A DNA stretch of 32,000 nucleotides from Saccharopolyspora erythraea (GTDB lineage: Bacteria > Actinomycetota > Actinomycetes > Mycobacteriales > Pseudonocardiaceae): NCBI RefSeq assembly GCF_018141105.1, contig NZ_CP054839.1:5489411-5521410 (forward strand), given 5' to 3'. A program made the translations under genes and the position numbers. Positions 2,513-20,255 of the stretch are shown here, in pieces. The notes beneath the pieces are model-generated. The model ran no database searches, was not told where the DNA came from, and worked only from the letters and a program-made list of their open reading frames with translations. The number at the start of each line of letters is the position of its first letter. Position 1 is the stretch's first letter.

Positions 2513-2582
2513 ACTCTACCCATCGGGTGACGCCGGAAGGCCCCGAACGAACCGGACGACGCCGGGACAACACGGCCACAAC

Positions 2583-2631
2583 AATCGGAGAATCCTCCAC
2601 TAACCGATTGCATGCGGAGACTTCTCCGATT
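2583..2631. promoter_or_regulatory. Candidate operator array in the hxlR-wrbA divergent intergenic region
   Basis: AATCGGAGA (2583-2591) and its exact reverse complement TCTCCGATT (2623-2631). Nested palindrome CGGAGA-ct-TCTCCG at 2615-2628. CGGAGA half-sites occur three times. Confidence 0.35.
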
Positions 2632-2700
2632 AGGCTGTGCTGAGCTCCGCACGCGCGAAGTCAGCCACCCGAGCAAGCAGCAGAACAGGAAAGTAGCGCC

Positions 2701-3315: not shown

Positions 3316-3328
3316 TCCGGACGCCGGC

Positions 3329-3712: not shown

Positions 3713-3728
3713 GGCGCCCGAACAGAAC

Positions 3729-3776
3729 CGGAAGTGATCACTCGTGCGGCCATCCGGCCACGAGTGATCACTTCCG
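3729..3776. promoter_or_regulatory. Perfect 18-bp inverted repeat (12-nt spacer) containing two copies of the palindrome AGTGATCACT; TetR operator pair or stem-loop terminator
   Basis: 3729-3746 CGGAAGTGATCACTCGTG is the exact reverse complement of 3759-3776. AGTGATCACT sits at 3733-3742 and 3763-3772, centres 30 bp apart. The repeat is 17 nt after the lipocalin stop and 86 nt before the TetR GTG. Confidence 0.5.
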
Positions 3777-3861
3777 CGCGTCCTACGATGACTCCCGCAG
3801 GTGGCAGCTGCTTCCCGGGAGGCAGCAGCGAGGCCGCCCGAGGTCAAGCGAAGGGAGCACC

Positions 3862-7083: not shown

Positions 7084-7850
7084 CAGGCCGCTCCTCCCGT
7101 GATCTCGCGCACGACCTCGTCGTGGTCGGCTGCCTTCACCAGCACCCTGATCCGCTCCTCACCGTTGTCCACAGTGGTCAGACGCCTGCCGAGCAGGACC
7201 CACTGCCCGTTCTCCGTGGCGCGGGAGCGGATGACCGTGCCGATGCCGAACTGCTCGGCGTCGTCGGCGTCGTCCCCGCCGGGGTTCCACTCGGCCAGCT
7301 CGCGCGGCCGCGGGTCGAACCGGTAGAGGCCGTGCCAGTCACCTCCGCGCGCCCTGCGCTCCAGCACCTGGTAGCCGCCCTGGGGTACGACGCGGTACTG
7401 GCAGCCGTACTGCTCCTGCACCTCCGGCGACACGCGCACCGGCTCCAGGAAGCCCGGCCCGGCGAACCCGACGTCGGCCAGCCACAGCTCGCCGTCGATG
7501 CGGACGCCGAGGAAGACGTGCGCCAGGTCCGGGCCGAAGGTGCCACCCGGGCCGCACAGCCCGCCCATCAGGAACGAGACGTCGAAGCCCAGCTCGCCCA
7601 GCAGCCGGTGGAACAGCCCCGCGAGCTCCCCGCAGTGGCCTCCCCGGCGCGCCACGACGGCCTCGTCGAACGCGGCGTCGAGGTCGATGTTCCCGCCGTT
7701 CATCCCGGCGGCGACCTGCTCGGAGAGCCGGGAGTTGTCGTAGGGCAGCGACATCACGTGCTTCTTGTGCAGTTCTCGCAACGCCTCCCGCCCGGGCGCC
7801 GCGGATCCGGAGCATCCGATGCCCGACAGGTAGGTTTCCACGCTGAACAA
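7083..7850 (-). CDS. rifF: Amide synthase of the arylamine N-acetyltransferase fold (RifF-like chain-release enzyme)
   Basis: 255-aa ORF. NAT catalytic triad context: RRGGHCGELAG (Cys), DLAHVFLGV (His), WLADVGFAGPGF (Asp). The N-terminus ETYLSGIG resembles the NAT xAYLxRIG motif. The only upstream in-frame start is TTG 7850, 6 nt after the PKS stop, with AGGAGG 11 nt upstream; GTG 7841 is the alternative. Confidence 0.85.
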   Translation of the reverse strand: MFSVETYLSGIGCSGSAAPGREALRELHKKHVMSLPYDNSRLSEQVAAGMNGGNIDLDAAFDEAVVARRGGHCGELAGLFHRLLGELGFDVSFLMGGLCGPGGTFGPDLAHVFLGVRIDGELWLADVGFAGPGFLEPVRVSPEVQEQYGCQYRVVPQGGYQVLERRARGGDWHGLYRFDPRPRELAEWNPGGDDADDAEQFGIGTVIRSRATENGQWVLLGRRLTTVDNGEERIRVLVKAADHDEVVREITGGAA

Positions 7851-7856
7851 TTCCGG

Positions 7857-10800
7857 TCATGCCTCCTGGTCCGCGGCCATCCGTTCTTGCAGGTGCTCGG
7901 CGAGCATCTGCGGGGTGGGGTACTCGAAGAGCAGCGCGGTCGGCAGCCGCAGCCCGGTGTGCCCGGACAGCCGGTTGCGCAGCTCGACGGCGTTGAGCGA
8001 GGTGAAACCGACCTCGAAGAACGCGTCTTCGTCGGCCAGGCCGCTCTCCAGGTTGCCCAGCGTCGTGGCGGCTTCGGACCGGACCAGCTCCAGTAGCGCC
8101 GCGAAGCGCTCCGGTTCGGCCAGGGCGTACCAGCGTTCGCGGAACGACGGTTCGCCGTCCTGCTCTCCTTCCGCCGCCGGGACGGCGATCCGCTCGCGGA
8201 CCTCGGACTCGGCGGTGCTCGACACCTCGGGCCAGTAGCGCCGGTGCTGGAACGCGTAGGTGGGCAGATCGACCCGGCGCGCACCGGTTCCGGCGAACAC
8301 CTCCGGCCAGTCGACGCTCGCGCCTCGCGCGTACATGGTGGACAGGGCCGTGAGCACCGTCGGCACCGCGGGGCGGTCCCGGCGCATGGTGGCCACGCAC
8401 TCGGCGTCCTGGCCCAGCTCGGCCAGCGACTCGGCGGCCATCGGCGTCAACGCGGCGTCCGGGCCCAGCTCGACGAAGGTCCGCACGCCCTGGTTCCACA
8501 ACGTGCGCACGGCGTCGTGGAACCGCACCGGCCTGCGCACGTGCTGCACCCAGTACTCCGGCGACGCCAGCTCCTCGGCGGACAGGACCTTGCCGCTGAC
8601 GTTGGACAGCACCGCGATGCGCGGCCGGTGGTAGGTCAGGCTCGCCGCCACCGCGCCGAACTCGTCGAGCATCGCGTCCATCCGCGGGGAGTGGAACGCG
8701 TGCCCCACCCGCAGCCGCCGGGTCTTCCACCCGCGGCTCGCGCACTCCTCGGCGACCGCTGCCACCACGTCCTCGTCGCCGGAGACGACGACCGAGGTGG
8801 GGCTGTTCACCGCCGCGATGTCGACCTGTCGCTCCCGGCCGGCCAGCAGCTCGGCGACGTCCTCCTCGCCGGCCTGGACCGCGGTCATCGCACCGCCTTC
8901 GGGCAGCGCCTGGATCAACCGGCCGCGACCGGCGACCAGCCGGGCGGCGTCCTCCAGCGACAGGACGCCGGCCACGTGCGCCGCGACGATCTCCCCGAGC
9001 GAGTGCCCGGCGACGAAGTCCGGTCGCACGCCCCACGACTCCACCAGCCGGTACAGCGCGGTCTCGACCGCGAAGAGGGCCGGCTGGGTGTAGGCCGTCA
9101 GGTCGAGCAGGCCGGGGTCGGTGGCGCCCGCGACGACTTCCCGCAACGGCCGCTCCAGGTGCGGGTCCAGCGCGGCGCAGACCTCGTCGAAGGCCTTCGC
9201 GTAGGCCGGGAAGCGGGCGTGCAGCTCCTCGCCCATCCCGATCCGCTGACTTCCCTGGCCGGTGAACAGCAACGCCAGACCGCCGCCGGCCACTCCCCGC
9301 ACCAGCTCGCCACCGGGCTCACCGTCGCGCAGCGCGGCCAGCCCGTCCAGCAGCTCACCGCGGTCACTCGCCAGGACCACCGCGCGGCGTTCCAGCCCCG
9401 CCCTGGAGGTGGCCTGCGAGAAGGCCAGGTCGACCAGGTCCGCGTCCGGCTCGTCGGCCAGGTGCCGGGCGAGCTTGTCGGCCTGACCGCGCAGGCCGGC
9501 CGCCGACCTGGCCGACAGCGGCACCGGGACAGGCGTGCTCACCTCGGTGCGCTCACCGCCTCGGACCTGTGCGCCGGCGGGGGCTTCCTCCAGGACGACG
9601 TGGGCGTTGGTACCGCTGATGCCGAAGGAGGAGACCCCTGCGCGACGCGGCCGGTCACCGGCCTCCCAGGGCCGGGGCTCGGTCAGCAGCGACATCCCGC
9701 CGGAGGACCAGTCGACGTGCGGTGACGGCTCGTCCACGTGCAGCGTCCTGGGCAGCAGGCCGTGGCGCATCGCCTGCACCACCTTGATCACACCCGCCAC
9801 CCCCGCGGCCGCCTGGGAATGGCCGATGTTGGACTTGACCGACCCCAGCCACACCGGCCGGTCGTCGTCCCGGTCGCGGCCGTAGGTGGCCAGCAGCGCG
9901 TCGGCCTCGATCGGATCGCCCAGTCGCGTACCGGTCCCGTGCGCCTCCACCACGTCGACGTCCGAAGTGGACAGACCGGCGTCGGACAGCGCCTGCCGGA
10001 TCACGTCCTGCTGCGCGGGTCCGTTGGGTGCGGTGAGGCCGTTGGACGCGCCGTCGTGGTTGACCGCCGAGCCGCGCAGCACGGCCAGCACCTCGTGGCC
10101 GTTGCGCCGCGCGTCCGACAGCCGCTCCAACAGGAGCAGGCCCGCGCCCTCCGACCACGCCGTTCCGTCGGCGCCCGCCGCGAAGGCCTTGCACTTGCCG
10201 TCGGGCGCCAGGCCCCGATGCCGGGAGAACTCGACGTAGTTGTCGAGGGTGGCCATCAGGGTCGCGCCGCCCGCGACCGCCAGCTCGCACTCCCCGCGCC
10301 GCAGCGAGTGCATCGCCAGGTGCAGCGCCACCAGCGAGGACGAGCACGCGGTGTCCACCGTGAGGGCGGGGCCCCGCAGGCCGAGGGTGTAGGCGATCCG
10401 GCCGGAGGCGACGCTGCCCGCCGTCCCGGTCATCAGGTGTCCTTCGAGCTCGGCGGGCGGATGCACGAACAGCTTGGTGTAGTCGTGGTTGATCACGCCG
10501 GTGAACACCCCGACCCCGGCACCGCGCAGCGCGGTCGGGTCGATGCCCGCGCGCTCGAAGGTCTCCCACGCGACCTCCAGCAGCAGCCGCTGCTGCGGGT
10601 CCATCGCCACCGCTTCCCTCGGCGAGATGCCGAAGAACTCGGCGTCGAACGCCGCGGCGTCCAGGAACGCGCCCCGCCGGACGTAGAAGCTCCCCGGGGT
10701 GTCCGGGTCCGGGTCGAAGGCGTCCTGGTTCCACCCCCTGTCCTCCGGCAGGTCGGTCATGACGTCCACTTCGTCGCGCAGCAGCCGCCAGAACTCCTCG

Positions 10801-13800
10801 GGCCCGCCTGCCGCGCCGGGGAACCGGCAGCCGATGGACACGATCGCGATCGGGTCGTCGGAGATCGCGCCGCCGGTCACCGCCGTGGCGACCGGTGCCT
10901 TCTCCACCTCGATGTCCTCGCCGACGACCTGGACGCGAATGTGCTCGGCGAGCACCGCCGGGGTCGGGTAGTCGAAGACCACGGTGGTCGACAGGCGCAG
11001 CTTCGTGGCGTCGTTGAGGCGGTTGCGGACCTCGACCGCGGTGAGCGAGTCGAACCCGGCCTCCTTGAACGGGCGGTTCGGGTCGATCGCGTCGGAGGTG
11101 GCGTGCCCGAGCACCGCCGCGGCCTCCTTGCAGACCAGCTCCAGCAGCATCCTGGTCTGCTCGGCCCCGGGGGCGTTCGCCAGCCGTCCGGCCAGGTCCG
11201 ACCCGGTCGCGGCCCGGCCGGCGACGCGCCGCCCCGGGCGGACCAGGCCCCGCAGCAACGGCGGCACCGGCTCCGACGACGCCCGCGCGCGCAGTGCCGG
11301 GAGGTCGAGCGAGACGGGCACGAGCGCGGCGTGGCCGGCATCCAGCCCGGCGTCGAGCAGGTCCATCCCGGTCTCGGTGGGCATCGGCTGGAGCCCGTTG
11401 CGCCGGTGCCGCGCGGCGGCGGTGTCGTCGAGCGCCGCCGTCAGGGCGCTCGTCTGCGCCCACCAACCCCACGCCAGCGACACCGCGGGCAGTCCGGCCG
11501 CCCTGCGCCGCTGCGCGAGGCCGTCCATGAAGGCGTTGGCCGCGGCGTAGTTGCCCTGCCCCGGGTTGCCGAACACCCCGGCCGCCGACGAGAACAGCAC
11601 GAACCAGGCCAGGTCCAGGTCAGCGGTGAGCTCGTGCAGGTTCAGCGCGGCGTCGACCTTCGGGCGGAAGACCGTGGCGATCCGCCCCTCGTCGAGCGCG
11701 GAGATCACCCCGTCGTCGAGCGCGCCCGCCGTGTGGACCACACCGGTGAGCGGGTGGTCCGGCGGCACCGCCGCCAGCAGCCGGGCCAGCGACTCGCGGT
11801 CGGCGACGTCGCAGGACTCGACCGAGACCCGGGCGCCGAGCCGGGTGAGCTCCTCCGCCAGCTCGGGGGCGCCGGGAGCGTCCATCCCCTGCCTGCCACA
11901 GAGGATGAGGCTCCGCACGCCGTGCTCGGTGACCAGGTGCCGCGCGGTTTCGGCGCCCAGCGTGCCGGTGCCGCCGGTGACCAGGACGGTGCCGCCTGGC
12001 TGCGGCGCGCGGGGCACGGTCAGCACGACCTTGCCGACGTGGCGGGCCTGGCTGATGTGGCGGAACGCCTCCGGTGCCCGCCGGACGTCCCAGACGCTCA
12101 GCGGCGACGGCGTGATCGCACCCGACTCGAACAGCTCCACGAGGTCGGCCAGCATCTGACCGGTCCGGTCCGGTCCCGCCTCGTAGAGCGCGTAGGCCTG
12201 ATACCGGACACCCGGGTGGGCTTCGGCGACCTGCCCGGCGTCGCGGGTCTCGGTCCTGCCGAGCTCCAGGAAGTGCCCGCCGCGGGGCAGCAGCGACAGC
12301 GACGTTTCGGCGAGCTCGCCGGTCAGCGAGTTCAGCACCACGTCCACCCCGCGACCACCGGTGCGTTCCCGGAACAGCTCGCCGAACTCCGCGGTGCGGG
12401 AGGAGGCGATGTGGTCGTCGGTCAGGCCGAGGGACCGCAGCGCGTCCCACTTGCCGGGGCTGGCGGTGCCGAACACCTCGGCGCCCCAGTGGCGCGCGAG
12501 CTGGGTGGCGGCCATGCCCACGCCGCCGGCGGCCGCGTGCACCAGCACGGACTGGCCCGCGCTCAGCCCGGCGAGGTCGCGCAGGCCGTAGTAAGCGGTG
12601 AGGAACACGACGGGCACCGAAGCCGCCTGCTCGAACGACCAGCCCCACGGGATGCGGGCCAGCAGGCGGCGGTCGGTCACCGCCTCGGTCGCGAAGGCGC
12701 CGTAGTCGCCGACCACACCCATGACCCGGTCGCCGGGAGCCAGGTCGGTCACGGCGTCGCCGACCTCCAGCACGACACCGGCGGCCTCACCGCCCAGGCC
12801 GTGCCGTACCCCGAGCATGTCCAGCGTGATCAGCACGTCCTTGAAGTTGACGCCCGCCGCGCGCACGGCGAGGCGGACCTCGCCGGGTGCCAGCGGCGCC
12901 GGGTCCTCCGGCAGTGCGACGAGCGCGAGGTCGGCCAGCGAGTCGCCGCCGTCGGCGACCTCCAGCCGCCAGGAGCGGCCGGGCGCCGCCAGTTCATCGG
13001 AGTGGCCGGCCAGCCTCGGCGCGTGGAAGTTCCCGTCGCGCAGCGCGAGCTGGGGCTCGTCGGCGGGCAGCGGCGGCAAGTGGCCGTCGAGGCGGTCGGC
13101 GTCGACGATCGTGATGCGCCCGGGGTTCTCCGACTGCGCCGAGCGCACCAGACCCCACACGGCCGCCGCGGCCAGGTCGCGGACCTCGTCGGCGTGGTGG
13201 ACCGGCACCGCGCCCCGGGTCAGCAGGACCAGGTGGCCGGACTCCAGCACCGGTTCGGCGAGCCACCGCTGGACCAGTTCCAGCACGCCGGCCGCGACCG
13301 CCCGCACCCGTGCGGGGTCGGTGTCGTCGGCTTCGGGCTCCACCCTCGCCAGCACCACCCCGGGTACCGGGCTTCCGGCGTCCAGTGCCCGGACGAGCGC
13401 GTCCACGCTCTCGTGCTCCGGCAGCTCCGCGGGCCCCCAACCCGTGCCCAGCACTGCCGAAGGGGTGGCCGCGTCCCCGTCTGCCTGCGGGACCGGTGTC
13501 CACGCCGTCCGGTACATCGGAGCGCGTTGCGCGCTCCTGCCGGCGGCGAGCTTCTCGTCCGGAGCCGGGCGCAGGACCAACGACTCGATGGACGCCACGG
13601 GATGTCCCAGCGGATCGGCAAGGCTGACCGAGATCTCGTCCGGACCCGAGGCCACCGCGCGCACCCGCAGCTGCGAGGCGCCCGAGGCGTGCAGCCGGAC
13701 ACCGCGGAAAGCGAACGGCAACCGCAGCTCGCCCGCCGCGTCGTGGCGCAGCTTCACCGAGTGCAGCGCGGCGTCCAGCAGTGCCGGGTGCAGACCGAAC

Positions 13801-16800
13801 CGCTGCGCCTCGGCCGCGTGGGCGTCCGCGAGCGACACTTCGGCGAAGAACTCCTCGCCGCGCGCCCACGCCGCGCGCACGCCCTGGAACGCCGGGCCGT
13901 ACCCGTAGCCCGCGGCCGCCTGGTTCTCGTAGAAGCCGGTCACGTCCACGGGTTCGGCGCCCTGCGGAGGCCACTGCTCGAAGTTCGCGTGCGGGGCCTC
14001 GCCGGTGGCCGCGAGGAACCCGGTGGCGTGGCGGGTCCACGCCTCGGACGGGCCGTCGTCGGCCCGGGAGTGGATCGCAACCTGCCTGCGTCCCCCGTCA
14101 TCGACCCCGGAGACGCTCACCTGCAACCGCACGCCGCCGGTGGCGGGCAGGAGCAGCGGCTGCTCGATGACCAGTTCTTCGACGACGCCGTGGCCGACCT
14201 GGTCGCCGGCGCGGACGGCCAGCTCCACCAGCGCGGCACCGGGCACGATCGGCGTGCCCGAGACCGCGTGGTCGGCCAGCCACGGATGTGTTCGCAGCGA
14301 GAGCCGTCCGGTGCACAGCACGCCGCCGGACTCCGGCAGCGCCACGACTGCACCGACGAGGGGGTGGTCGGCTTCCTCCAGACCGGCCGTGCTCACGTCA
14401 CCGGTCTGTTCGGAGGCTTCCAGCCAGTAGCGGCGGTGCTGGAACGCCTGGGTCGGCAGCTCCACGCGACGGGCGCCGGTGCCCTCGAACACGGCGGTCC
14501 AGTCGATCGGCACACCCGCGACCCACAGCCGGGTCAGCGAGGCCAGGAAGCGGTCGAGTCCGCCGTCGTCGCGGCGCAGCGACCCGGTGACCACGGTGGT
14601 CACCGGCTGCTCCCGCCGGTCCAGGCCATCCTGCACGCTGGTGGTCAGCACCGGGTGCGAGCTGGACTCGACGAACGCCCGGTAGCCCTGTTCGGCCAGG
14701 GCGTCGACCGCCGCCCCGAAACCCACCGTCCGGCGCAGGTTGCGGTACCAGTACTCGCCGTCGAGCGCCGCGGTGTCCAGCCACTGCCCGTCGACCGTGG
14801 AGAAGAAGGGCACCTCCGCGGTGTGCGGCCGCACGTCGGCCAGCACCTCCAGCAGCTCCTCGCGGATGCGCTCCACGTGCGAGCTGTGGGAGGCGTAGTC
14901 CACCGGAATCCGCCTGGCGCGGACGTCCTCGGCCTCGCACTCGGCGAGCAGCTCCTCCAGCGCGCCGGGCTCGCCCGCCACCACGACCGAGGTGGGCCCG
15001 TTGACCGCGGCCACCTCCAGACCGGGGCGCAGCCGGTCGGTGACCCGGTCCAGCGGCAACGACACCGACATCATGCCGCCGTGGCCCGCGAGGCCTCGCC
15101 GGATCGCCTGGCTGCGCAGGGCGACGACCTTCGCGGCGTCCTCAATGGACAGCGCCCCGGCCACGCACGCCGCGGCGATCTCGCCCTGCGAGTGACCCAC
15201 GACGGCATCCGGCGTGATCCCGTACGAGCGCCACAGCTCGGCGAGCGAGACCATCACGGCGAACGAGACCGGCTGCACGACGTCCACCCGTTCCAGCGAG
15301 GGAGCCCCTTCCCGCTGCCGCAGCACGTCCCGCAGGGACCAGTCGACGTGGGGTTGCAGCGCCCGCTCGCACTCGGCGATCCGCGCCGCGAAAACCGGGG
15401 ACGAGTCCAGCAGCGCGGCCCCCATGCCCGCCCACTGCGCTCCCTGTCCCGGGAAGACCATGGCCAGCTTGCCCTCGACGCCCGCGGAGTCCGCCACGAC
15501 CTCCTGCGGCCGCTCACCGGCGGCGAACGCGTTCAGCGCCGCGACCGCGTCGGCCGGGTCGCCTGCCACGACCGCCGCCCGGTGCTCCAGCGCCGCGCGC
15601 GTGGTGACCGAGGAGAACCCGACGTCCGCGGGCCGGTGGCCGGGACGATCCGCCAGGAACGAAGCCCACCGGCCGGCCTGCGCCCGCAGCCCGTCGGCCG
15701 ACCGCGCCGACAGCACCCACGGCACCGGGGCGGTGCTCCCGGCCTCCTCGGGGGCCGCGTCCGGCTCGCCGGCGTGCTCCAGGATCACGTGCGCGTTCGT
15801 CCCGCTCACGCCGAACGAGGACACGGCCGCACGACGGGGGCGGTCCAGCTCCGGCCACGGCCGGGCCTCCCGCAGCAGCTTGACCGACCCGGACGACCAG
15901 TCGATCCGGGAGGACGGCTCGTCCACGTGCAGGGTCCTGGGCAGCACGCCGTGCCGCATCGCCTGAACCGCCTTGATCACACCGGCGACGCCCGCGGCGG
16001 CCTGGGCGTGACCGATGTTGGATTTCAGGGAGCCCAGCCACAACGGCTGGCCGGCGGGACGGCCCTGGCCGTAGGTGGCCAGCAGCGCCTGCGCCTCGAT
16101 CGGGTCACCCAGCCTGGTGCCCGTTCCGTGCGCCTCGACCGCGTCGACCTCCGCGGCCGACAGCCCGGCGCTCGCCAGCGCGCGCCGGATCACCCGTTCC
16201 TGCGCGGGACCGCTCGGCGCGGTCAGGCCGTTCGACGCTCCGTCCTGGTTGACCGCCGAGCCGCGCACCACTGCGAGCACCTGGTGTCCGTTGCGCCGGG
16301 CCTGCGACAGCCGCTCCAGCACCAGCACGCCAACGCCCTCGGCCCAAGCCGTGCCGTCGGCCGCCTCGGCGAAGGCCTTGCACCTGCCGTCCGGGGCCAG
16401 GGCGCGCTGCCGGGAGAACTCCACGAACGACGTGGGCTTCGCCATGACCGCGACGCCGCCGGCCAGCGCCAGCTCGCACTCGCCGTCGCGCAGCGCCTGC
16501 GCGGCCACGTGCAGCGCCACCAGCGAGGACGAGCACGCGGTGTCCACCGTCACCGCGGGGCCTTCCAGACCGAGCGTGTAGGAGACGCGGCCGGAGGCGA
16601 CGCTGCCGGAGTTCCCGGTGCCCAGGTAGCCTTCCAGGCCCTCCGGGACGCGGCCGAGATCGCTGGCGTAGTCGTGGTACATGACGCCGGAGAAGACCCC
16701 GACATCGGCGCCGCGCAACGAGTCCGGGGCGATCGCGGCGCGTTCGAGGACCTCCCACGAGACCTCCAGCAGCAGCCGCTGCTGGGGGTCCATCGCCTCC

Positions 16801-19800
16801 GCCTCGCGGGGCGAGATGCCGAAGAACTCGGGGTCGAAACCGGCCACGTCGTCGAGGAACCCGCCGTGGCGCACGTAGGACTTGCCCGCCCGGCCCGGAT
16901 CGGGGTCGAACAGCTCCTCCAGGTTCCAGCCCCGGTCGCCGGGGAAGTCGCCGACCGCGTCGCCCTCACCGGCCACGAGGTCCCAGAGCTCCTCGGGAGA
17001 GGACACCCCGCCCGGCAGGCGGCAGCCCATGGCGACGATGGCGATCGGTTCGTCGGAGTGCGACACCACCCGCGCATCCGCGGCTGCATTCGAAGGTTCC
17101 CCGCCGAACAGCAGCGAACGCAGGTGCCGGCCCACCCTGGCCGGCGTGGGGTGGTCGAACGCCAGCGTCAGCGGCAGGTCGAGACCGGTGCTCGCGGTCA
17201 GCCGGTTGCGCAGCTGCACGGCGGTGGCCGAGTCGAGGCCGAGGTCGCGGAAGGCGCGGTCGGAGGGGACGGTCGCGCCGTCGGGCATGGCGTAGAGCCG
17301 GGCGACCTCGCCGCGCACGAGCTCCACCAGCGTCCGGCCCTGCTCCTCGCGCGACAACGGCGCGAGCCGCTCGCGCAGTTCGGACGCCGTGCCGTCGTCG
17401 GGCGCATCGACCTGGACCGGCACGTCGATCAGGTCCCGCAGCGCCGGAGGGAGGGACCCGGACCCGACCGCGGTCGAGTCCAGCCGCAACGCGAGCACCG
17501 ACGTGCGGTCGGCGAGGTGCGCGGCGTCGAACATCGCCGCGTGCTCCCGGCCGGTGAGCCTGCCCAGGCCGGCGGGCACGGACCAGTCCTCGTGCTCGCC
17601 CGGTCCGAGGACCACCGAGAGCGCGGGCAGTCCGCGTGCCGCGCGATGCCGCGCGACGGCGTCGAGGAAGACGCCGGCAGCCGCGTCGTCGGCGCTGCCG
17701 GCTCCGCCGAGCGTCCCGGCGGCCGAGGAAAGCAGCACGAACGCCTTGAGACCGGTTTCCAGGGCCAGCTCGTGGAGGTTGAGCGCACCGTCCATGGTGG
17801 ACAGCGCTTCCCGTCCGGCACCCGCGGCGAACACCACCGCGGCCGGCCGGTGCCCGGCCAGCAGTCCCGCCAGCGCATCCCGGTCGGCCACGTCGCAGGC
17901 GGCCAGCGCGACCGACGCACCGGCGGCGGTCAGCTCCGCGTGCAGCTCCCGGGCCGCGAGGTCGGCGTCCCCGCCGCGGCTCACCAGGAGGAACCGGCGA
18001 ACGCCGTGCACGGCGGCCAGGTGCCGCGCCACCGTCGCGGCCACCGCGCCGTCGGCACCGGCGACCAGCGCGGTGTCCCGCGAGGTGAGCTGCAACGGGC
18101 GTCGTGCGCCTCCGGTCGCGGCCACCCGGTTGGCGCGGGGCCGCAGCGCCACCCCGGATCGCAGCAGGAGCTCGGGTTCGCCCGAGGAGACGGCATCGGC
18201 CAGTGCCGCCGCCGAACCGGCGGCGGGTTCGAGGTCCACCAGGACGACACGTCCCGGGTGGGCTGCCCGCAGGGCGCGGACCGCGCCCCACACCGGCGCC
18301 GCGACCAGGTCGGGCACCTCGTCGTCCGGCCCGGCGGCCACCGCCGCCCGGGTCACCACGACCAGGGTGCCCGCCGAGAAGCGCTCGTCGCCGAGCCAGG
18401 ACTCCGCCTGCTCGGTGACCACCCGGACGCGGTCGCGCGCCTCCTCAGCCGGCGACGCGGCTCCGCCGGCGGCCGTGCCCGCCACCTGGAGCACGGTGAC
18501 CTCCGGGGCGGACTCCGCCGAGTCCACCGACTCGGCGAGCTCGTCGGTGTCCGAGTACCGGTCGACGGATCTCCCCTGCGAAGCGAGGGAGTCGGCCACC
18601 CCGAAGACGTCCGGGCCGACGACGGCCCACTGCTGGGCCGCGGCCCTTGCCTGCGGGACGGTCGGCAGCGGGAGCCAGTCGAGCTGGAAGAGCAGTTCGT
18701 GCCGCGCGCCGCCTGCGGCCCTGAGCCTGGCGGGCCGGTCGAGCAGCACGTGGCGGGTGATCTTGCCCGACGCCGTCCGCGGGATCCGGTCGATCTCGTA
18801 GAGCTCCTCGGGCACCTTGATGTAGGAGAGCTGCTCCCTGCACACCGCCAGCAGGTGCTCGGGGTCCAGCCCCTCGGGCCCCGGGACCAGGAACGCCACC
18901 GGGACCTCGCCCAGCACCTCGTGCGGCTTGCCGACCACGGCCGCGTCGGCCACGCCCGGTACCGACCGCAGCACGGCTTCGACGTCACCGGGGTGGATGT
19001 TCTCCCCGCCGCGGATGATCAGTTCCTTGATTCGGCCGCTGATCGTGAAGTAGCCGCTCTCGTCGCGCCGCGCGAGGTCGCCGGTGCGGTACCAGCCGTC
19101 GTGGAAGACCGCGGCGGTGGCCTCGGGCTGGTCGTGGTACCCGGCCATGACGCTCGGGCCCTGGACCCAGACCTCGCCTTCCTCGCCGGTGGCGACGTCG
19201 ACCAGGGTCTCCGGATCCACCAGCCGGACGCCGAGACCCGGAACCGGCAGTCCGCACGAGCCCTCGACCCGCGCACCGGTCGGCCAGTTGATGGTGATCG
19301 ACCCGCAGGTCTCGGTGCTGCCGTAGGCATCCAGCAGCGGGGCGCCGAATGCCTGCTCGAACGAGCGCCGCAGCGCCGCGGTGGTGATCGCCCCGCCCAC
19401 CAGGCACATCCGCAGGTCCGGCAGCGAGAGCCGCTGCTCGCCCGCCGCGCGCACCAGGTGGTGGTACATCGTCGGCACCCCGGCCAGGAACGTGGTGGAG
19501 TCCTCGCGCAGCGCGTTGAGGACCTCGTCGGCCGAGAAGCCGTCGAGCACCCGCGCGGTGGCCCCCACCGCGGTCACGCCCAGCACGCACGCGATGTGGG
19601 AAAGGCTGTGGAACAGCGGCAGCGGCCAGAGCACACTGTCCTCTTCGGACAGTCCGGGGATCGGCACGTAGCAGGCCGCGACCGACCACAGGCAGTTGCG
19701 CTGCGAGGACAGCACGCCCTTGGGCCTGCCGGTGGTCCCCGACGTGTAGAGCATCCAGGCCGGAGCGTCGAGGGGCAGGTCGTCCCGGGCGGGAGTCGCC

Positions 19801-20255
19801 GGGTCGGTGACGGCCAGGTGGGCGTAGGAGACCGTGCCGCTGGGTACTGGCGCGTCGCCGACGACCACGATCCGCCGCACCCCGCCGCCCGCGGCGCGGA
19901 CCTGCTCGACGTGCGCCTCGTCGGTGATCACCACCCGCGCCCCGCTGTCCTCCAGCAGGTAGGAGAGCTCGGCCTCGGTGACCCGCGGGTTGAGCGGCAC
20001 CCCGATCGCGCCCGCCCGCAGGATCGCCAGGTAGCTCTCGACCACCTCCACCCGGTTCCCGAGCAGGATCGCCGCGCGGTCGCCGGGCTGCAGACGCAGG
20101 TCGGCCAGGTGCCCGGCGAGCCGCCGGGTGCGCAGCTCCAGGTCGGCGTAGCTCACACTCAGCCGGGAGTCGCGGAACGCGATCTTGTGCTCGAGGCGGG
20201 AGGCGTGCGACCGCAGAAGCTCGGGCAGCGGCCGAATGAGCTCCGTACGCAGCAT
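7857..20255 (-). CDS. Modular type I polyketide synthase: loading module (CAL-KR0-ACP) + module 1 (KS-AT-DH-ER-KR-ACP) + module 2 (KS-AT-ACP); no thioesterase
   Basis: 4132 aa from ATG 20255 (AAGGA about 10 nt upstream). The track's extra 134 codons run into the divergent promoter and are non-homologous. Motifs in order: LYTSGTTGRPKGV/SGKITR; LGLDSA; DTACSSS-EAHGTGT-NIGHAQAAAG; GHSQGE...YASH; HAVSGTPIVPG-GYGPAF-LLDAALH; HAAAGGVGMAA; TGGTGTLG-LDD-GNYAAANAF; GFDSLT; DTACSSS-EAHGTGT-NIGHSQAAAG; GHSLGE...HAFH; GFTSLN. It ends 15-20 aa after the last ACP. Confidence 0.95.
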   Translation of the reverse strand: MLRTELIRPLPELLRSHASRLEHKIAFRDSRLSVSYADLELRTRRLAGHLADLRLQPGDRAAILLGNRVEVVESYLAILRAGAIGVPLNPRVTEAELSYLLEDSGARVVITDEAHVEQVRAAGGGVRRIVVVGDAPVPSGTVSYAHLAVTDPATPARDDLPLDAPAWMLYTSGTTGRPKGVLSSQRNCLWSVAACYVPIPGLSEEDSVLWPLPLFHSLSHIACVLGVTAVGATARVLDGFSADEVLNALREDSTTFLAGVPTMYHHLVRAAGEQRLSLPDLRMCLVGGAITTAALRRSFEQAFGAPLLDAYGSTETCGSITINWPTGARVEGSCGLPVPGLGVRLVDPETLVDVATGEEGEVWVQGPSVMAGYHDQPEATAAVFHDGWYRTGDLARRDESGYFTISGRIKELIIRGGENIHPGDVEAVLRSVPGVADAAVVGKPHEVLGEVPVAFLVPGPEGLDPEHLLAVCREQLSYIKVPEELYEIDRIPRTASGKITRHVLLDRPARLRAAGGARHELLFQLDWLPLPTVPQARAAAQQWAVVGPDVFGVADSLASQGRSVDRYSDTDELAESVDSAESAPEVTVLQVAGTAAGGAASPAEEARDRVRVVTEQAESWLGDERFSAGTLVVVTRAAVAAGPDDEVPDLVAAPVWGAVRALRAAHPGRVVLVDLEPAAGSAAALADAVSSGEPELLLRSGVALRPRANRVAATGGARRPLQLTSRDTALVAGADGAVAATVARHLAAVHGVRRFLLVSRGGDADLAARELHAELTAAGASVALAACDVADRDALAGLLAGHRPAAVVFAAGAGREALSTMDGALNLHELALETGLKAFVLLSSAAGTLGGAGSADDAAAGVFLDAVARHRAARGLPALSVVLGPGEHEDWSVPAGLGRLTGREHAAMFDAAHLADRTSVLALRLDSTAVGSGSLPPALRDLIDVPVQVDAPDDGTASELRERLAPLSREEQGRTLVELVRGEVARLYAMPDGATVPSDRAFRDLGLDSATAVQLRNRLTASTGLDLPLTLAFDHPTPARVGRHLRSLLFGGEPSNAAADARVVSHSDEPIAIVAMGCRLPGGVSSPEELWDLVAGEGDAVGDFPGDRGWNLEELFDPDPGRAGKSYVRHGGFLDDVAGFDPEFFGISPREAEAMDPQQRLLLEVSWEVLERAAIAPDSLRGADVGVFSGVMYHDYASDLGRVPEGLEGYLGTGNSGSVASGRVSYTLGLEGPAVTVDTACSSSLVALHVAAQALRDGECELALAGGVAVMAKPTSFVEFSRQRALAPDGRCKAFAEAADGTAWAEGVGVLVLERLSQARRNGHQVLAVVRGSAVNQDGASNGLTAPSGPAQERVIRRALASAGLSAAEVDAVEAHGTGTRLGDPIEAQALLATYGQGRPAGQPLWLGSLKSNIGHAQAAAGVAGVIKAVQAMRHGVLPRTLHVDEPSSRIDWSSGSVKLLREARPWPELDRPRRAAVSSFGVSGTNAHVILEHAGEPDAAPEEAGSTAPVPWVLSARSADGLRAQAGRWASFLADRPGHRPADVGFSSVTTRAALEHRAAVVAGDPADAVAALNAFAAGERPQEVVADSAGVEGKLAMVFPGQGAQWAGMGAALLDSSPVFAARIAECERALQPHVDWSLRDVLRQREGAPSLERVDVVQPVSFAVMVSLAELWRSYGITPDAVVGHSQGEIAAACVAGALSIEDAAKVVALRSQAIRRGLAGHGGMMSVSLPLDRVTDRLRPGLEVAAVNGPTSVVVAGEPGALEELLAECEAEDVRARRIPVDYASHSSHVERIREELLEVLADVRPHTAEVPFFSTVDGQWLDTAALDGEYWYRNLRRTVGFGAAVDALAEQGYRAFVESSSHPVLTTSVQDGLDRREQPVTTVVTGSLRRDDGGLDRFLASLTRLWVAGVPIDWTAVFEGTGARRVELPTQAFQHRRYWLEASEQTGDVSTAGLEEADHPLVGAVVALPESGGVLCTGRLSLRTHPWLADHAVSGTPIVPGAALVELAVRAGDQVGHGVVEELVIEQPLLLPATGGVRLQVSVSGVDDGGRRQVAIHSRADDGPSEAWTRHATGFLAATGEAPHANFEQWPPQGAEPVDVTGFYENQAAAGYGYGPAFQGVRAAWARGEEFFAEVSLADAHAAEAQRFGLHPALLDAALHSVKLRHDAAGELRLPFAFRGVRLHASGASQLRVRAVASGPDEISVSLADPLGHPVASIESLVLRPAPDEKLAAGRSAQRAPMYRTAWTPVPQADGDAATPSAVLGTGWGPAELPEHESVDALVRALDAGSPVPGVVLARVEPEADDTDPARVRAVAAGVLELVQRWLAEPVLESGHLVLLTRGAVPVHHADEVRDLAAAAVWGLVRSAQSENPGRITIVDADRLDGHLPPLPADEPQLALRDGNFHAPRLAGHSDELAAPGRSWRLEVADGGDSLADLALVALPEDPAPLAPGEVRLAVRAAGVNFKDVLITLDMLGVRHGLGGEAAGVVLEVGDAVTDLAPGDRVMGVVGDYGAFATEAVTDRRLLARIPWGWSFEQAASVPVVFLTAYYGLRDLAGLSAGQSVLVHAAAGGVGMAATQLARHWGAEVFGTASPGKWDALRSLGLTDDHIASSRTAEFGELFRERTGGRGVDVVLNSLTGELAETSLSLLPRGGHFLELGRTETRDAGQVAEAHPGVRYQAYALYEAGPDRTGQMLADLVELFESGAITPSPLSVWDVRRAPEAFRHISQARHVGKVVLTVPRAPQPGGTVLVTGGTGTLGAETARHLVTEHGVRSLILCGRQGMDAPGAPELAEELTRLGARVSVESCDVADRESLARLLAAVPPDHPLTGVVHTAGALDDGVISALDEGRIATVFRPKVDAALNLHELTADLDLAWFVLFSSAAGVFGNPGQGNYAAANAFMDGLAQRRRAAGLPAVSLAWGWWAQTSALTAALDDTAAARHRRNGLQPMPTETGMDLLDAGLDAGHAALVPVSLDLPALRARASSEPVPPLLRGLVRPGRRVAGRAATGSDLAGRLANAPGAEQTRMLLELVCKEAAAVLGHATSDAIDPNRPFKEAGFDSLTAVEVRNRLNDATKLRLSTTVVFDYPTPAVLAEHIRVQVVGEDIEVEKAPVATAVTGGAISDDPIAIVSIGCRFPGAAGGPEEFWRLLRDEVDVMTDLPEDRGWNQDAFDPDPDTPGSFYVRRGAFLDAAAFDAEFFGISPREAVAMDPQQRLLLEVAWETFERAGIDPTALRGAGVGVFTGVINHDYTKLFVHPPAELEGHLMTGTAGSVASGRIAYTLGLRGPALTVDTACSSSLVALHLAMHSLRRGECELAVAGGATLMATLDNYVEFSRHRGLAPDGKCKAFAAGADGTAWSEGAGLLLLERLSDARRNGHEVLAVLRGSAVNHDGASNGLTAPNGPAQQDVIRQALSDAGLSTSDVDVVEAHGTGTRLGDPIEADALLATYGRDRDDDRPVWLGSVKSNIGHSQAAAGVAGVIKVVQAMRHGLLPRTLHVDEPSPHVDWSSGGMSLLTEPRPWEAGDRPRRAGVSSFGISGTNAHVVLEEAPAGAQVRGGERTEVSTPVPVPLSARSAAGLRGQADKLARHLADEPDADLVDLAFSQATSRAGLERRAVVLASDRGELLDGLAALRDGEPGGELVRGVAGGGLALLFTGQGSQRIGMGEELHARFPAYAKAFDEVCAALDPHLERPLREVVAGATDPGLLDLTAYTQPALFAVETALYRLVESWGVRPDFVAGHSLGEIVAAHVAGVLSLEDAARLVAGRGRLIQALPEGGAMTAVQAGEEDVAELLAGRERQVDIAAVNSPTSVVVSGDEDVVAAVAEECASRGWKTRRLRVGHAFHSPRMDAMLDEFGAVAASLTYHRPRIAVLSNVSGKVLSAEELASPEYWVQHVRRPVRFHDAVRTLWNQGVRTFVELGPDAALTPMAAESLAELGQDAECVATMRRDRPAVPTVLTALSTMYARGASVDWPEVFAGTGARRVDLPTYAFQHRRYWPEVSSTAESEVRERIAVPAAEGEQDGEPSFRERWYALAEPERFAALLELVRSEAATTLGNLESGLADEDAFFEVGFTSLNAVELRNRLSGHTGLRLPTALLFEYPTPQMLAEHLQERMAADQEA
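7890..8115 (-). other. PKS module 2 (terminal) ACP
   Basis: FFEVGFTSLNAVELRNRL; Ser codon 8000-7998, in TSL rather than DSL. The protein stops shortly after ...PTPQMLAEHLQERMAADQEA. Confidence 0.8.
8420..9280 (-). other. PKS module 2 acyltransferase, malonyl-CoA-type motifs
   Basis: FTGQGSQ; TAYTQPALFA; GHSLGE (Ser codon 9002-9000); HAFH (8702-8691). Confidence 0.8.
9588..10856 (-). other. PKS module 2 ketosynthase
   Basis: DPIAIVSIGCRFPG to GTNAHVVLEE. Cys codon 10346-10344. EAHGTGT and NIGHSQAAAG are present. Confidence 0.9.
10925..11155 (-). other. PKS module 1 ACP
   Basis: FKEAGFDSLTAVEVRNRL; Ser codon 11048-11046. Confidence 0.85.
11440..11995 (-). other. PKS module 1 ketoreductase (B-type, LDD motif)
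   Basis: VLVTGGTGTLG, HTAGALDDG, SSAAGVFGNPGQGNYAAANAF (Tyr codon 11549-11547). Confidence 0.85.
12013..12975 (-). other. PKS module 1 enoylreductase
   Basis: GEVRLAVRAAGVNFKDV...; NADPH motif LVHAAAGGVGMAATQLA (about 12510-12542); ...HVGKVVLTVP. Confidence 0.8.
13565..14375 (-). other. PKS module 1 dehydratase
   Basis: HPWLADHAVSGTPIVPGAA (His codon 14270-14268), GYGPAFQG, LHPALLDAALH. Confidence 0.8.
14560..15475 (-). other. PKS module 1 acyltransferase, methylmalonyl-CoA-type motifs
   Basis: FPGQGAQW; RVDVVQP; GHSQGE (Ser codon 15191-15189); YASH (14897-14886). Confidence 0.8.
15777..17051 (-). other. PKS module 1 ketosynthase
   Basis: EPIAIVAMGCRLPGG to GTNAHVILE. Active Cys codon 16535-16533 (DTACSSS). 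Both His motifs are present. Confidence 0.9.
17105..17345 (-). other. PKS loading module ACP
   Basis: FRDLGLDSATAVQLRNRL; phosphopantetheine Ser codon 17231-17229 (in frame, residue 1009). Confidence 0.85.
17480..18695 (-). other. PKS loading module: degenerate ketoreductase-like region (KR0)
   Basis: Aligns to KR1 of the same protein. The NADPH loop is LVAGADGAVAATVARHLA versus LVTGGTGTLGAETARHLV. The catalytic stretch is SSAAGTLGGAGSADDAAAGVFLDAV versus SSAAGVFGNPGQGNYAAANAFMDGL. The Tyr-equivalent is Asp (codon 17687-17685) and the Asn-equivalent is Gly. Confidence 0.65.
18740..20255 (-). other. PKS loading module: aryl-acid CoA-ligase/adenylation (CAL) domain
   Basis: AMP-binding core LYTSGTTGRPKGV (about 19716-19752), YGSTETCG, YRTGDL, and the A10 Lys in SGKITR (codon 18764-18762). 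The position at the N-terminus of an AHBA-cluster PKS implies AHBA activation (inference). Confidence 0.8.

Follow-up and report, generated by a model that had tools for sequence, protein, structure and literature searches.

The 32,000-nt stretch of DNA analysed here (the window) encodes a polyketide synthase (PKS) with two extension modules and, directly behind it, an amide synthase related to the enzymes that close ansamycin macrolactams, and it raises the question of how so short a chain is released. The window corresponds to pks3, a long-known orphan cluster of Saccharopolyspora erythraea (16 genes, SACE_2864-2879; PMC2206050), with SACE_2875 as the PKS and SACE_2876 as the amide synthase. 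Our literature search, which took in AHBA triketides, dimers, the SACE gene numbers and A. macrotermitis but neither Oliynyk et al. 2007 nor Wang et al. 2013, found no product assignment. The cluster is a miniature relative of the rifamycin and geldanamycin assembly lines, a variant so far unexplored of a known kind of system. The PKS domain calls are already in print; what is new is a conserved multi-genus cluster family, a distinct amide synthase clade and a varying module-1 reductive loop.

The assembly line and its neighbouring genes

The coordinates given to the PKS by the initial annotation match a 4132-aa ORF exactly (ATG at 20255, stop codon 7857-7859; Table 1), and both the architecture and the acyltransferase (AT) calls read from the window are those published for SACE_2875 (4132 aa; load CL-ACP; KS-AT(P)-DH-ER-KR-ACP; KS-AT(A)-ACP; PMC3359211). 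Pfam profiles place AMP-binding/AMP-binding_C, SpnB_Rossmann/KR-like, PP-binding, KS and AT domains in the first part of the protein, followed by DH (PKS_DH_N and PS-DH), ER (ADH_N, ADH_zinc_N), KR, PP-binding, KS, AT and PP-binding, and because the E-values run from 1e-187 to 1e-10 chance is no issue for these assignments. The layout, in one protein on the minus strand, is thus A-KR0(dead)-ACP / KS-AT-DH-ER-KR(LDD)-ACP / KS-AT-ACP. No thioesterase was detected in the PKS by the Pfam domain search and the protein carries no C-terminal docking domain; it ends 46 residues past the Ser of the last ACP, as terminal subunits do, the corresponding tail being 96 residues in a non-terminal subunit.

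Table 1. Features of the pks3 window (positions in the window; strand relative to the sequence as analysed)
Feature	Position	Strand	Basis
HxlR-family regulator	2171-2515	-	PF01638; divergent from quinone reductase gene
WrbA-type NAD(P)H:quinone oxidoreductase	2701-3315	+	NF002999, 160 bits (cutoff 141)
Lipocalin_5 protein	3329-3712	+	PF13924
TetR-family regulator	3862-4497	+	PF00440; start uncertain (3697, 3862 or 3886)
O-methyltransferase	4490-5497	-	PF00891, PF08100
FAD monooxygenase, MhpA/Rif-Orf19/GdmM type (ring hydroxylase)	5494-7083	-	PF01494; NF004829
NAT-family amide synthase SACE_2876 ('gdmF')	7083-7850	-	PF00797, E 2.5e-40
Type I PKS SACE_2875, 4132 aa	7857-20255	-	Pfam domains, motifs, published annotation (PMC3359211)
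Terminal ACP	7881-8123	-	Motif; 46 residues from Ser to protein end
Module 2 KS-AT, malonyl type, without reductive domains	8331-10853	-	AT2 GHSLGE/HAFH
Module 1 ACP	10926-11168	-	PF00550; GFDSL motif
Module 1 reductive loop DH-ER-KR, KR B-type (LDD)	11451-14366	-	Every catalytic motif present
Module 1 KS-AT, methylmalonyl type	14511-17054	-	AT1 GHSQGE/YASH
Loading ACP	17121-17363	-	PF00550; LGLDSA motif
KR-like spacer KR0 of loading module, inactive	17556-18548	-	PF22953
Loading adenylation domain (aryl acid:ACP ligase), PKS residues 15-498	18762-20213	-	PF00501, PF13193
Class II (amino)DAHP synthase, RifH-like	20410-21741	+	PF01474, E 1.6e-202; TIGR01358; start uncertain
Xi-class GST / glutathionyl-hydroquinone-reductase-like protein	21838-22827	-	GST_N_2, GST_C_2, CPWA motif
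rifM-like	23006-23707	-	PF00702, PF01408, PF01041 found across 23006-26008 (rifM-, rifL-, rifK-like)
rifL-like	23700-24794	-	
rifK-like AHBA synthase	24791-26008	-	
rifN-like ROK kinase	26257-27165	+	PF00480
rifG-like aminoDHQ synthase	~27102-28196	+	PF01761/PF24621
rifI-like dehydrogenase	28198-29013	+	PF08501
LAL-type (AAA plus LuxR) regulator	29040-31976	-	PF13191, PF00196

The loading module shares 50-66% identity with its counterparts in ansamycin PKSs, some of which are annotated as rifamycin PKS modules 1/2/3, the matches being fragments of at most 1800 aa among which orthologues are not selectable by length. KR0 is inactive since it lacks the NADPH motif GGTGxLG and carries GSADDAAAG in place of GQGNYAAAN, with the catalytic Tyr replaced; the same inactive KR0 is reported in the loading modules of pentaketide ansamycin PKSs (PMC13000494). 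KS1 matches the first KSs of other PKSs that are primed with AHBA at 79-83% identity, and seven of the eight AHBA-pathway genes (rifG, H, I, J, K, L, M, N) flank the PKS gene, with rifJ not found in the 32,000-nt window and present in relatives. Together with the closeness of the loading module and KS1 to ansamycin PKSs, these genes support the AHBA starter proposed in the initial annotation.

The motif-based reading of the two extension modules is likewise confirmed. AT1 carries GHSQGE at PKS residue 1687 and YASH at 1787, and its module holds intact DH (HAVSGTPIVP, fitting HxxxGxxxxP; GYGP; LHPALLDAALH), ER (HAAAGGVG) and B-type KR (GGTGTLG; LDD in HTAGALDDG; GQGNYAAAN) domains. AT2 carries GHSLGE at residue 3750 and HAFH at 3852, and as only about 70 residues separate the post-AT linker from the ACP, module 2 has no reductive domain. 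DTACSS, EAHGTGT and NIGH are present in both KS1 and KS2, and the Ser is conserved in all three ACPs. AHBA made by the cluster's own genes would be loaded by the A-ACP loading module, module 1 would add methylmalonate with full reduction and module 2 would add malonate and leave the ketone, so that the intact motifs predict the triketide thioester already proposed, 5-(3-amino-5-hydroxyphenyl)-4-methyl-3-oxopentanoyl-S-ACP.

The genes downstream of the amide synthase gene and beyond suggest what would become of the aromatic ring. The FAD monooxygenase scores 643.7 bits against NF004829 (curated cutoff 390), and in 63 of 75 loci its gene comes after that of the amide synthase. Counterparts in loci L001, L002, L039 and L064 are 62-66% identical for the O-methyltransferase and 50-70% for the Lipocalin_5 protein, for which a sequence search of the PDB found no relative and a single-sequence AlphaFold (AF2) model was unusable (pLDDT 47.5). 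The WrbA-type reductase is 69-70% identical to counterparts in L039 and L064, and L001 and L002 also hold an FMN_red gene. Of the regulators, HxlR is conserved in L001, L002 and L003, and TetR is 62-68% identical in the Actinomadura clusters. Both GST domains and the CPWA catalytic motif place the GST in the Xi class, from which its activity is predicted; JGI gives many of its homologues the name GS-hydroquinone reductase, and in relatives the gene lies immediately upstream of the PKS gene. The GST sequence is 100% identical to S. erythraea protein P0175. The GST was rejected as a family marker, a 68%-identical Nonomuraea homologue lying in an unrelated neighbourhood. In the proposed pathway the MhpA-type flavoenzyme would hydroxylate the ring to a hydroquinone or quinone, the O-methyltransferase would decorate the hydroxylated ring, and the quinone reductase and the GST would deal with the reactive quinone. 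The conservation of these four enzymes points to a small amino(hydro)quinone product. We infer starter identity, tailoring order and quinone product in this way; the intermolecular release considered below is the least certain step.

A single-PKS cluster family in four genera

At least six genomes, belonging to four genera, carry a cluster of the pks3 type, and in each a single PKS gene encodes a loading module and two extension modules. Besides S. erythraea, the members are Streptomyces sp. NPDC055025, an ENA metagenome contig, Thermomonospora umbrina, Actinomadura macrotermitis and A. flavalba, the two Actinomadura clusters having been uncovered by a domain survey of the 70 scanned loci. A scan of the genome collection with the amide synthase profile returned no relative more than 55% identical. 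Neither fetched flank of the related clusters (five or six, in four genera) holds a further PKS gene.

Within this constant frame the module-1 loop varies, consisting of KR only, dead DH plus KR, DH-KR or DH-ER-KR. The last form is confined to S. erythraea, ER being missing from all relatives; T. umbrina has, by its motifs, a dead DH and an active KR, and L001 and the ENA contig combine a B-type KR with a DH. AT2 is of the methylmalonyl type in the Actinomadura clusters. The predicted chain consequently differs across the family, with OH, ene or CH2 at the benzylic carbon and, because AT2 differs among members, H or methyl at C2. KS2 forms a family-specific clade (bootstrap 100; best match outside the family 71%). 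Locus L005 may be a one-module variant that retains the amide synthase, the gene of which adjoins one similar to the LAL regulator gene. L005 is a metagenome contig, however, and an assembly that collapsed at the conserved N-terminus of the KS could account for its one-module state.

These comparisons bear on the origin of the architecture, which the initial annotation had read as a hybrid logic that arose when a longer ansamycin PKS was truncated or recombined. That reading is unsupported: a DH-ER-KR loop peculiar to S. erythraea and a KS2 in its own clade indicate an old and conserved architecture and not a recent truncation. Among the nearest known systems are the pentaketide ansamycin clusters (tropansamycin tpm, microansamycin, cebulactam/Q-1047 type), represented here by L003/L025 of Streptomyces sp. 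NBC_01506 and L004/L006 of Micromonospora sp. They share with pks3 the AHBA genes, the A-KR0(dead)-ACP loading module, a terminal KS-AT-ACP module ending 46 residues beyond the ACP Ser, the succession of amide synthase and MhpA-type FAD monooxygenase, and the HxlR regulator. However, they have four extension modules spread over two or three proteins with docking domains, whereas pks3 has two modules in one protein, and their amide synthases, 50-55% identical to SACE_2876, fall outside its clade. Recent truncation of such a PKS by internal module deletion was rejected, KS2 of pks3 being unrelated to the terminal KSs of the pentaketide clusters.

In module logic, the parallel is the start of the rifamycin line. 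Rifamycin biosynthesis has in common with pks3 the AHBA starter, methylmalonate in module 1, an Orf19-type hydroxylase, malonate with a retained ketone in module 2, and an NAT-type amide synthase in place of a thioesterase; its module 1 has an active KR and a dead DH exactly as in T. umbrina. The ancestral logic of the family resembles modules 1 and 2 of rifamycin with the loading module in front of them; to module 1, unlike rifamycin, S. erythraea has added a DH and an ER predicted to be active. Eight more modules follow in rifamycin, whereas pks3 stops after two.

SACE_2875 is very probably a self-contained triketide line. The alternative of a longer chain, made by an iterating bimodule or by modules encoded elsewhere and then closed to a conventional ansa macrolactam, is improbable. 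Iterative use of modules has precedent in other type I PKSs and leaves no sequence signature, a point that also counts against intermolecular release. The described relatives of the amide synthase all form macrolactams, and S. erythraea has other modular PKS genes such as pks2 SACE_2630 (PMC3359211). Against a longer chain stand the translational adjacency of the PKS and amide synthase genes, which is typical of last PKS genes, a KS1 of the aryl-starter 'first KS' type, and an amide synthase clade distinct from the macrolactam formers. The additional modules that the initial annotation had allowed for are disfavoured by the 46-residue tail, which has no docking domain, and by the single-PKS clusters kept in four genera with no PKS neighbour. 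The conserved single-PKS family, the separate amide synthase clade and the varying loop together argue against both modules elsewhere and recent truncation.

It is very unlikely that pks3 is a decaying remnant without a product. To our knowledge no product has been assigned since the 2007 genome paper, rifJ is missing from the window, and two industrial strains, Px and HOE107, carry inactivating pks3 mutations; these mutations, however, occur in mutagenised overproducers and not in the wild type. The ORF, 12.4 kb long, is intact and retains all catalytic motifs, the family is conserved across four genera, and the cluster is inducible, its genes being co-expressed and up-regulated in strain E3 (PMC3733707).

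The amide synthase and the release step

The amide synthase gene begins 6 nt beyond the PKS gene if read from TTG 7850, GTG 7841 being the start that fits the published 252 aa, and its product would be the sole release enzyme. SACE_2876 shares the fold of GdmF (E 4e-109 to the profile; GdmF structures 8OOM and 8BTM, of which 8OOM is the nearest solved structure), and its triad Cys73/His111/Asp126 is intact and invariant across the compared sequences. However, the enzyme does not group with the RifF/GdmF macrolactam formers, nor does it match their active-site neighbourhood. Seven amide synthases of the pks3 family form a clade of their own against 66 others (bootstrap 94/100), with H/N at position 72 (V/I/T in other amide synthases), G/L at position 74 (H/F/Y in the others) and A/G at position 110, where 91% of the others carry Glu. 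These positions flank the catalytic Cys73 and His111, so that the surroundings read V-C-Y and E-H in GdmF, which closes a 19-membered ring on an octaketide, and H-C-G and A-H in SACE_2876. At the level of sequence such substitutions show divergence, not direction.

With two extension modules and no docking domain, pks3 falls short of the chain length of an ansa macrolactam. The predicted chain is too short for the usual ring, so the amide synthase probably acts differently. We agree with the initial annotation that, given this length, a head-to-tail lactam of the open chain would be a 9-membered, meta-bridged ring ([6]metacyclophane-type), whose strain is argued from ring size alone. Direct closure to this lactam is the simplest reading of an amide synthase behind a last module, and 9-membered lactams with cis amides exist. 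We nevertheless consider it highly improbable: the ring would have to hold a meta-phenylene, an anilide and a ketone, the E-enone variants of the relatives could not close, and every ansamycin listed in a 2026 survey is at least a pentaketide, the smallest having 13-membered rings (PMC13000494).

Because the chain's own meta-amino group reaches the thioester only through this 9-membered ring, we propose an intermolecular NAT ping-pong mechanism in which the acyl group would pass from ACP2 to Cys73 and on to the arylamine of a second AHBA-derived molecule, either free AHBA or another triketide, giving a β-keto anilide or a head-to-tail (cyclo)dimer. NybK of the nybomycin pathway transfers a β-ketoacyl (acetoacetyl) group. 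Like AsuC2 (asukamycin) and PtmC/PtnC (platensimycin), it couples an acyl thioester to a separate aromatic amine and so provides precedent for intermolecular amide formation (PMC11213898); SACE_2876 clearly belongs to the RifF/GdmF lineage, would receive its acyl chain from the ACP of a type I PKS and is likened to these enzymes in proposed chemistry only. Among ansamycin-type amide synthases there is also precedent for a second AHBA as acceptor (PMC13000494). The variation at the benzylic carbon and C2 argues against a release that depends on exact chain geometry, and the one-module candidate L005 with its amide synthase was counted as further support. Intermolecular N-acylation, one of the options in the initial annotation, gains indirect support from the separate clade and the changes beside the catalytic Cys and His, and we tentatively regard it as the most likely release step, at a confidence short of probable.

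A different amide synthase would equally fit the formation of a 5- or 6-membered lactam, which counts against intermolecular release. After ring hydroxylation and oxidation of the rifamycin kind, the chain could bond to the aromatic ring through its activated methylene C2 or the C3 ketone; a bond at the ring carbon between chain and amine would bring the thioester beside the nitrogen, and the amide synthase, remaining intramolecular, would close a 5-membered (benz[cd]indolone/oxindole-type) or 6-membered (2-quinolone-type) lactam. The family logic, which equals that of the rifamycin start (loading module, then a module 1 with KR alone or KR behind a dead DH, then a keto-retaining KS-AT-ACP), suits this route, as does the Rif-Orf19/MhpA-type hydroxylase conserved beside the amide synthase, the rifamycin enzyme acting on a PKS-bound early intermediate and setting up ring closure (PMC12236473; PMC4551226). 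Yet the rifamycin regiochemistry (closure para to nitrogen) would leave the thioester far from the amine and lead back to an intermolecular amide, the E-enone predicted for L001 and the ENA contig would keep the chain off the ring, and with the methylmalonyl-type AT2 of Actinomadura C2 would become quaternary. The same hydroxylase occurs in benzenic pentaketide clusters, so its presence is no sign of ring closure, and a 5- or 6-membered lactam would probably close without an enzyme. Naphthalene ring closure occurs in rifamycin, whereas the pks3 sequence data give no sign of it. Prior carbocyclisation therefore seems unlikely, though to be taken seriously. The idea that all reductive-loop variants lead to one aromatic naphthalene product was rejected, being weakened by the methylmalonyl-type AT2 of Actinomadura.

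The main route might also yield no amide. Either water or the NAT-fold enzyme would hydrolyse the thioester, and the β-keto acid would then decarboxylate to an aryl methyl ketone, comparable to the 3-aminoacetophenone unit of pactamycin, or the enzyme would N-acylate a shunt or final product only. Terminal β-keto thioesters are prone to hydrolysis and decarboxylation, and the conserved gene set contains no other release enzyme. A NAT-fold enzyme is, however, unnecessary for hydrolysis alone, and an arylamine-specific fold with an intact triad, conserved and placed exactly as in macrolactam clusters, speaks against this route, which we consider improbable.

Implications for the family

Geldanamycin, a benzoquinone ansamycin, shares with pks3 a quinone-making hydroxylase (GdmM) and a first module with full reduction. 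A stronger form of the proposal, that the amide synthases of the family have exchanged ring closure for intermolecular coupling and that the products are head-to-tail anilide dimers or cyclodimeric bis-lactams, a class of small AHBA-derived amino(hydro)quinones not described before, is a possibility that we hold to be doubtful. Were it correct, the rifamycin-like 'first three modules' would serve as a stand-alone pathway. Release that is intermolecular or follows carbocyclisation would give the RifF/GdmF enzymes a function new to their family and, if true, would add a new class of small molecules from a cluster of one of the best-studied industrial actinomycetes. Erythromycin overproducers carry a knocked-out pks3, so that the product of the cluster, or its drain on precursors, may matter for strain engineering. 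With one protein and two modules, the pks3 family is a natural minimal model for AHBA priming, Orf19-type on-line hydroxylation and thioesterase-free release, and the module-1 loop series (KR, dead DH plus KR, DH-KR, DH-ER-KR) offers a ready test of how far release tolerates changes in the chain.

Architecture of the PKS and its neighbourhood

The window DNA is of the high-GC, actinomycete type, and its largest ORF encodes a PKS in which the Pfam domains run A, KR-like, ACP, KS, AT, DH, ER, KR, ACP, KS, AT, ACP (best E-value 1e-187). AT1 carries the GHSQGE and YASH motifs and AT2 carries GHSLGE and HAFH. Within module 1 the DH retains HxxxGxxxxP, YGP and DxxxH, the ER retains HAAAGGVG, and the KR retains GGTGTLG, LDD and the Ser/Tyr/Asn set. 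Cys-His-His residues are present in both KS domains and the Ser in all three ACPs, while the space in module 2 is too small for any reductive domain. The loading-module "KR" has neither a nucleotide motif nor a catalytic Tyr and is therefore a dead spacer; a dead loading-module KR has also been reported for pentaketide ansamycin PKSs (PMC13000494). The coordinates and all motifs quoted in the initial annotation were found where expected. The observation is correct but was known beforehand as published annotation, the domain and AT calls for SACE_2875 in the literature matching the window ORF exactly (PMC3359211).

Past the amide synthase lie, in order, an FAD monooxygenase, an O-methyltransferase, a TetR regulator, a lipocalin_5 protein, a WrbA-type quinone reductase and an HxlR regulator. 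The monooxygenase exceeds the cutoff of the NCBIfam model for MhpA enzymes, the family to which Rif-Orf19 and GdmM are usually assigned in annotations. The divergent HxlR/WrbA layout resembles quinone-responsive regulator/reductase pairs of the YodB type; the Actinomadura clusters differ in gene order, the TetR regulator instead adjoining the reductase and lipocalin genes. No PDB entry is related in sequence to the lipocalin_5 protein and no NCBIfam model matches it; its single-sequence AlphaFold model is all-beta and of low confidence (pLDDT 47.5), and it could be a cyclase, carrier or resistance protein. The other flank of the PKS holds a class II DAHP synthase, the GST, homologues of rifM, rifL, rifK, rifN, rifG and rifI, and then a LAL regulator. 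A tblastn search of the whole window returned no rifJ (type II dehydroquinase), which in S. erythraea may lie beyond the window or have its function supplied by primary metabolism. Two pentaketide ansamycin clusters (Streptomyces sp. NBC_01506 and Micromonospora sp.) also carry a luciferase-like gene, distantly similar (32%) to the one at the window edge.

Features of the window and of related clusters
Locus	Coordinates	Strand	Feature	Remark
Window	20255 to stop at 7857-7859	-	PKS (SACE_2875)	ATG start; 4132 residues
Window	6 nt after PKS stop	-	NAT-family amide synthase (PF00797; SACE_2876)	Shine-Dalgarno-like CAGGAGG ahead; Cys-His-Asp triad intact
Window	21838-22827	-	Xi-class GST	CPWA motif; inside AHBA/PKS operon
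Window	3329-3712	+	lipocalin_5 protein (PF13924)	kept in 5/5 fully seen clusters
Window	2171-3315		HxlR regulator and WrbA quinone reductase	divergent transcription
Window	2-1830	-	F420-dependent luciferase-like oxidoreductase (TIGR03619) and start of GTP cyclohydrolase II gene	left edge
L076 (A. macrotermitis)	2789-3223		rifJ	between rifN and rifK
L077 (ENA contig)	1109-1546		rifJ	between rifN and rifK
L078 (T. umbrina)	1384-1818		rifJ	between rifN and rifK
L076	6519-10969		Gsi/Dpp-like ABC importer and GST	directly upstream of PKS
L077	4944-10990		Gsi/Dpp-like ABC importer and GST	directly upstream of PKS
L078	4935-10972		Gsi/Dpp-like ABC importer and GST	directly upstream of PKS
L039 (A. 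macrotermitis)	15567-17174		double-ABC ATPase of importer	elsewhere in cluster
L005 (JGI metagenome 3300082309)	3-6716		PKS of loading module and single KS-AT-ACP, then amide synthase
L041 (Streptomyces rugosispiralis)	1101-10768		AHBA loading module fused to geldanamycin-type last module KS-AT-DH-KR-ACP, then GdmF-like amide synthase

A family of two-module clusters

Only three proteins among 5.8 billion are close relatives of the window amide synthase (61-66%), and two of them, in Streptomyces sp. NPDC055025 and an ENA contig, lie in clusters with the window gene order of single PKS (3942 and 3812 aa, respectively), amide synthase, FAD monooxygenase, OMT, HxlR, FMN reductase and lipocalin_5. 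When the PKS ORFs preceding 70 amide synthase homologues in species-representative genomes were surveyed, two further two-module PKSs emerged, from Actinomadura macrotermitis and A. flavalba, which share the family's tailoring set together with a GST; A. rubrisoli probably has such a cluster too. Walking from the GST reached the upstream sides of the A. macrotermitis, ENA contig and Thermomonospora umbrina clusters, where rifI-G-N-J occupy one strand and rifK-L-M, a Gsi/Dpp-like ABC importer, the GST and a single PKS (3134 aa in A. macrotermitis, 3705 aa in T. umbrina) the opposite one, followed by the amide synthase where the fetched DNA extends. No second PKS gene occurs on the fetched flanks of any of these clusters, those of A. 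macrotermitis and the ENA contig being covered on both sides.

The module 1 reductive loop differs by lineage, being DH-ER-KR in S. erythraea, DH-KR in Streptomyces sp. NPDC055025 and the ENA contig, and KR only in both Actinomadura species; judged by its motifs, T. umbrina has an active KR and a DH remnant without the His and YGP motifs. AT2 is of the malonyl type (HAFH) in the window, Streptomyces sp. NPDC055025 and the metagenome contig L005, and of the methylmalonyl type (GHSQGE/YASH) in Actinomadura. Several catalytic PKS motifs of the ENA contig (ERZ27254885 k141_276159) are degenerate (AT2 GHSAQE and HALH, AT1 FASH, KS1 EGHGTGT; DH with HGT for YGP and Glu for Asp), which may reflect decay, sequencing error or altered specificity. 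Module 1 is fully reducing in S. erythraea, as the geldanamycin-like half of the proposed hybrid module logic had it. However, this state is peculiar to that species, and by domain content the commoner family state is the rifamycin LM-M1-M2 logic.

A recent origin from a longer ansamycin PKS, whether by truncation or by recombination, is unsupported. The KS2 domains of S. erythraea, L005, T. umbrina and both Actinomadura species form a clade with a bootstrap of 100, the closest outside match being 71% identical; KS1, at 79-83%, groups with weak support (60/100) with first KSs from other AHBA-primed PKSs. Recombination inside the family is nonetheless evident: an ER was gained, DHs were lost or decayed, AT2 was swapped, and Streptomyces sp. 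NPDC055025 and the ENA contig have a KS2 of another lineage. The L005 amide synthase is 66% identical to that of the window, and after it come genes for a LAL regulator and an ISL3 transposase. The KS of the L005 PKS shares 83% identity with window KS2, and the junction lies at the conserved KS N-terminus. This PKS looks like the window PKS with module 1 excised at the N-terminal KS motif; either a genuine loss of the module or a collapse during metagenome assembly could account for it. Separately, the C-terminal part of the L041 fusion shares 91% identity with the terminal module in L042, and the fusion reflects either natural loss of the internal modules or repeated PKS modules collapsed in assembly.

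Chain length and release

The chemical argument for a chain too short to close an ordinary ansa ring is sound, resting on ring size rather than computed strain. Further modules encoded elsewhere are disfavoured by the single-PKS layout in four genera and by the PKS C-terminus, which lies 46 residues past the ACP2 Ser; in a pentaketide cluster the terminal subunit likewise ends 46 residues past its Ser, whereas the non-terminal subunit extends for 96, including a docking helix. Extension by iterative module use, which leaves no sequence signature, is given a low probability.

Carbocyclisation before lactam formation is taken seriously: a C-C bond to the ring carbon between chain and amine would put the thioester next to the nitrogen, and a 5- or 6-membered lactam could close. 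AHBA, C3 and C2 with a kept ketone correspond exactly to the rifamycin chain segment from which the second naphthalene ring is made, and the family conserves an Orf19-type hydroxylase, an enzyme whose substrate in rifamycin is an early intermediate still bound to the PKS (PMC12236473; PMC4551226). However, the rifamycin regiochemistry separates amine and thioester, so that the amide must again be intermolecular, and the same hydroxylase is carried by benzenic pentaketide clusters. A carbocyclisation shared by the family is further opposed by the predicted E-enone of two relatives and by the C2 methyl branch of Actinomadura.

Intermolecular action of the window amide synthase, the first option of the initial annotation and here a proposed release mechanism, gains indirect support. 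The seven amide synthases adjoining short PKSs form one clade (bootstrap 94/100) apart from 66 others behind longer assembly lines. Clade-specific residues flank the catalytic Cys73 (H/N-C-G/L versus V/I/T-C-H/F/Y elsewhere), and A/G stands beside His111, where 91% of the remaining amide synthases have Glu; GdmF, with a solved structure, has the canonical V-C-Y and E-H, unlike the window clade. The donor chain differs at several positions across the family, which fits a release step attending mainly to the beta-ketoacyl-ACP2 end and the arylamine acceptor. As precedents, the pentaketide amide synthase TpmD has been proposed to off-load onto a second AHBA (PMC13000494), and the NAT-family enzymes AsuC2, PtmC and NybK form intermolecular amides (PMC11213898).

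The pks3 locus and the nature of its product

The window cluster is pks3 of Saccharopolyspora erythraea, which comprises 16 genes, SACE_2864-2879, with this single PKS gene (PMC2206050); across all 329 of its residues the window GST is 100% identical to an S. erythraea protein. The pks3 genes are co-expressed, with up-regulation in strain E3 (PMC3733707), and the cluster was independently inactivated in two industrial erythromycin overproducers: Px has a frameshift in SACE_2875, HOE107 a nonsense mutation (PMC3359211). SACE_2876 is listed as gdmF in the same study, where Peano et al. also call this amide synthase "AHBA synthase", a mislabel (PMC3359211). Full-text literature searches found no product assignment for pks3.

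The GST may indicate self-protection or a step that depends on a thiol (glutathione), and its homologues bear the name glutathionyl-hydroquinone reductase. In the three walked relatives it is translationally coupled to the Gsi-like importer, overlapping its stop. In all three, the importer has two permeases and an SBP_bac_5 binding protein; the double-ABC ATPase gene lies next to these in the ENA contig and in T. umbrina. The window contains the GST yet no transporter. A Nonomuraea GST homologue (68% identical) lies outside any BGC. Together, the conserved WrbA reductase, the Xi-class GST, the HxlR/TetR regulators and the GST-coupled importer of the relatives suggest, from gene content, that the product is a thiol-reactive quinone or hydroquinone. 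New in this analysis are the assignment of the window to S. erythraea pks3, the family conserved across genera, its separate clade of amide synthases changed next to the active site, and grounds against reading these clusters as missing modules or as recently truncated.
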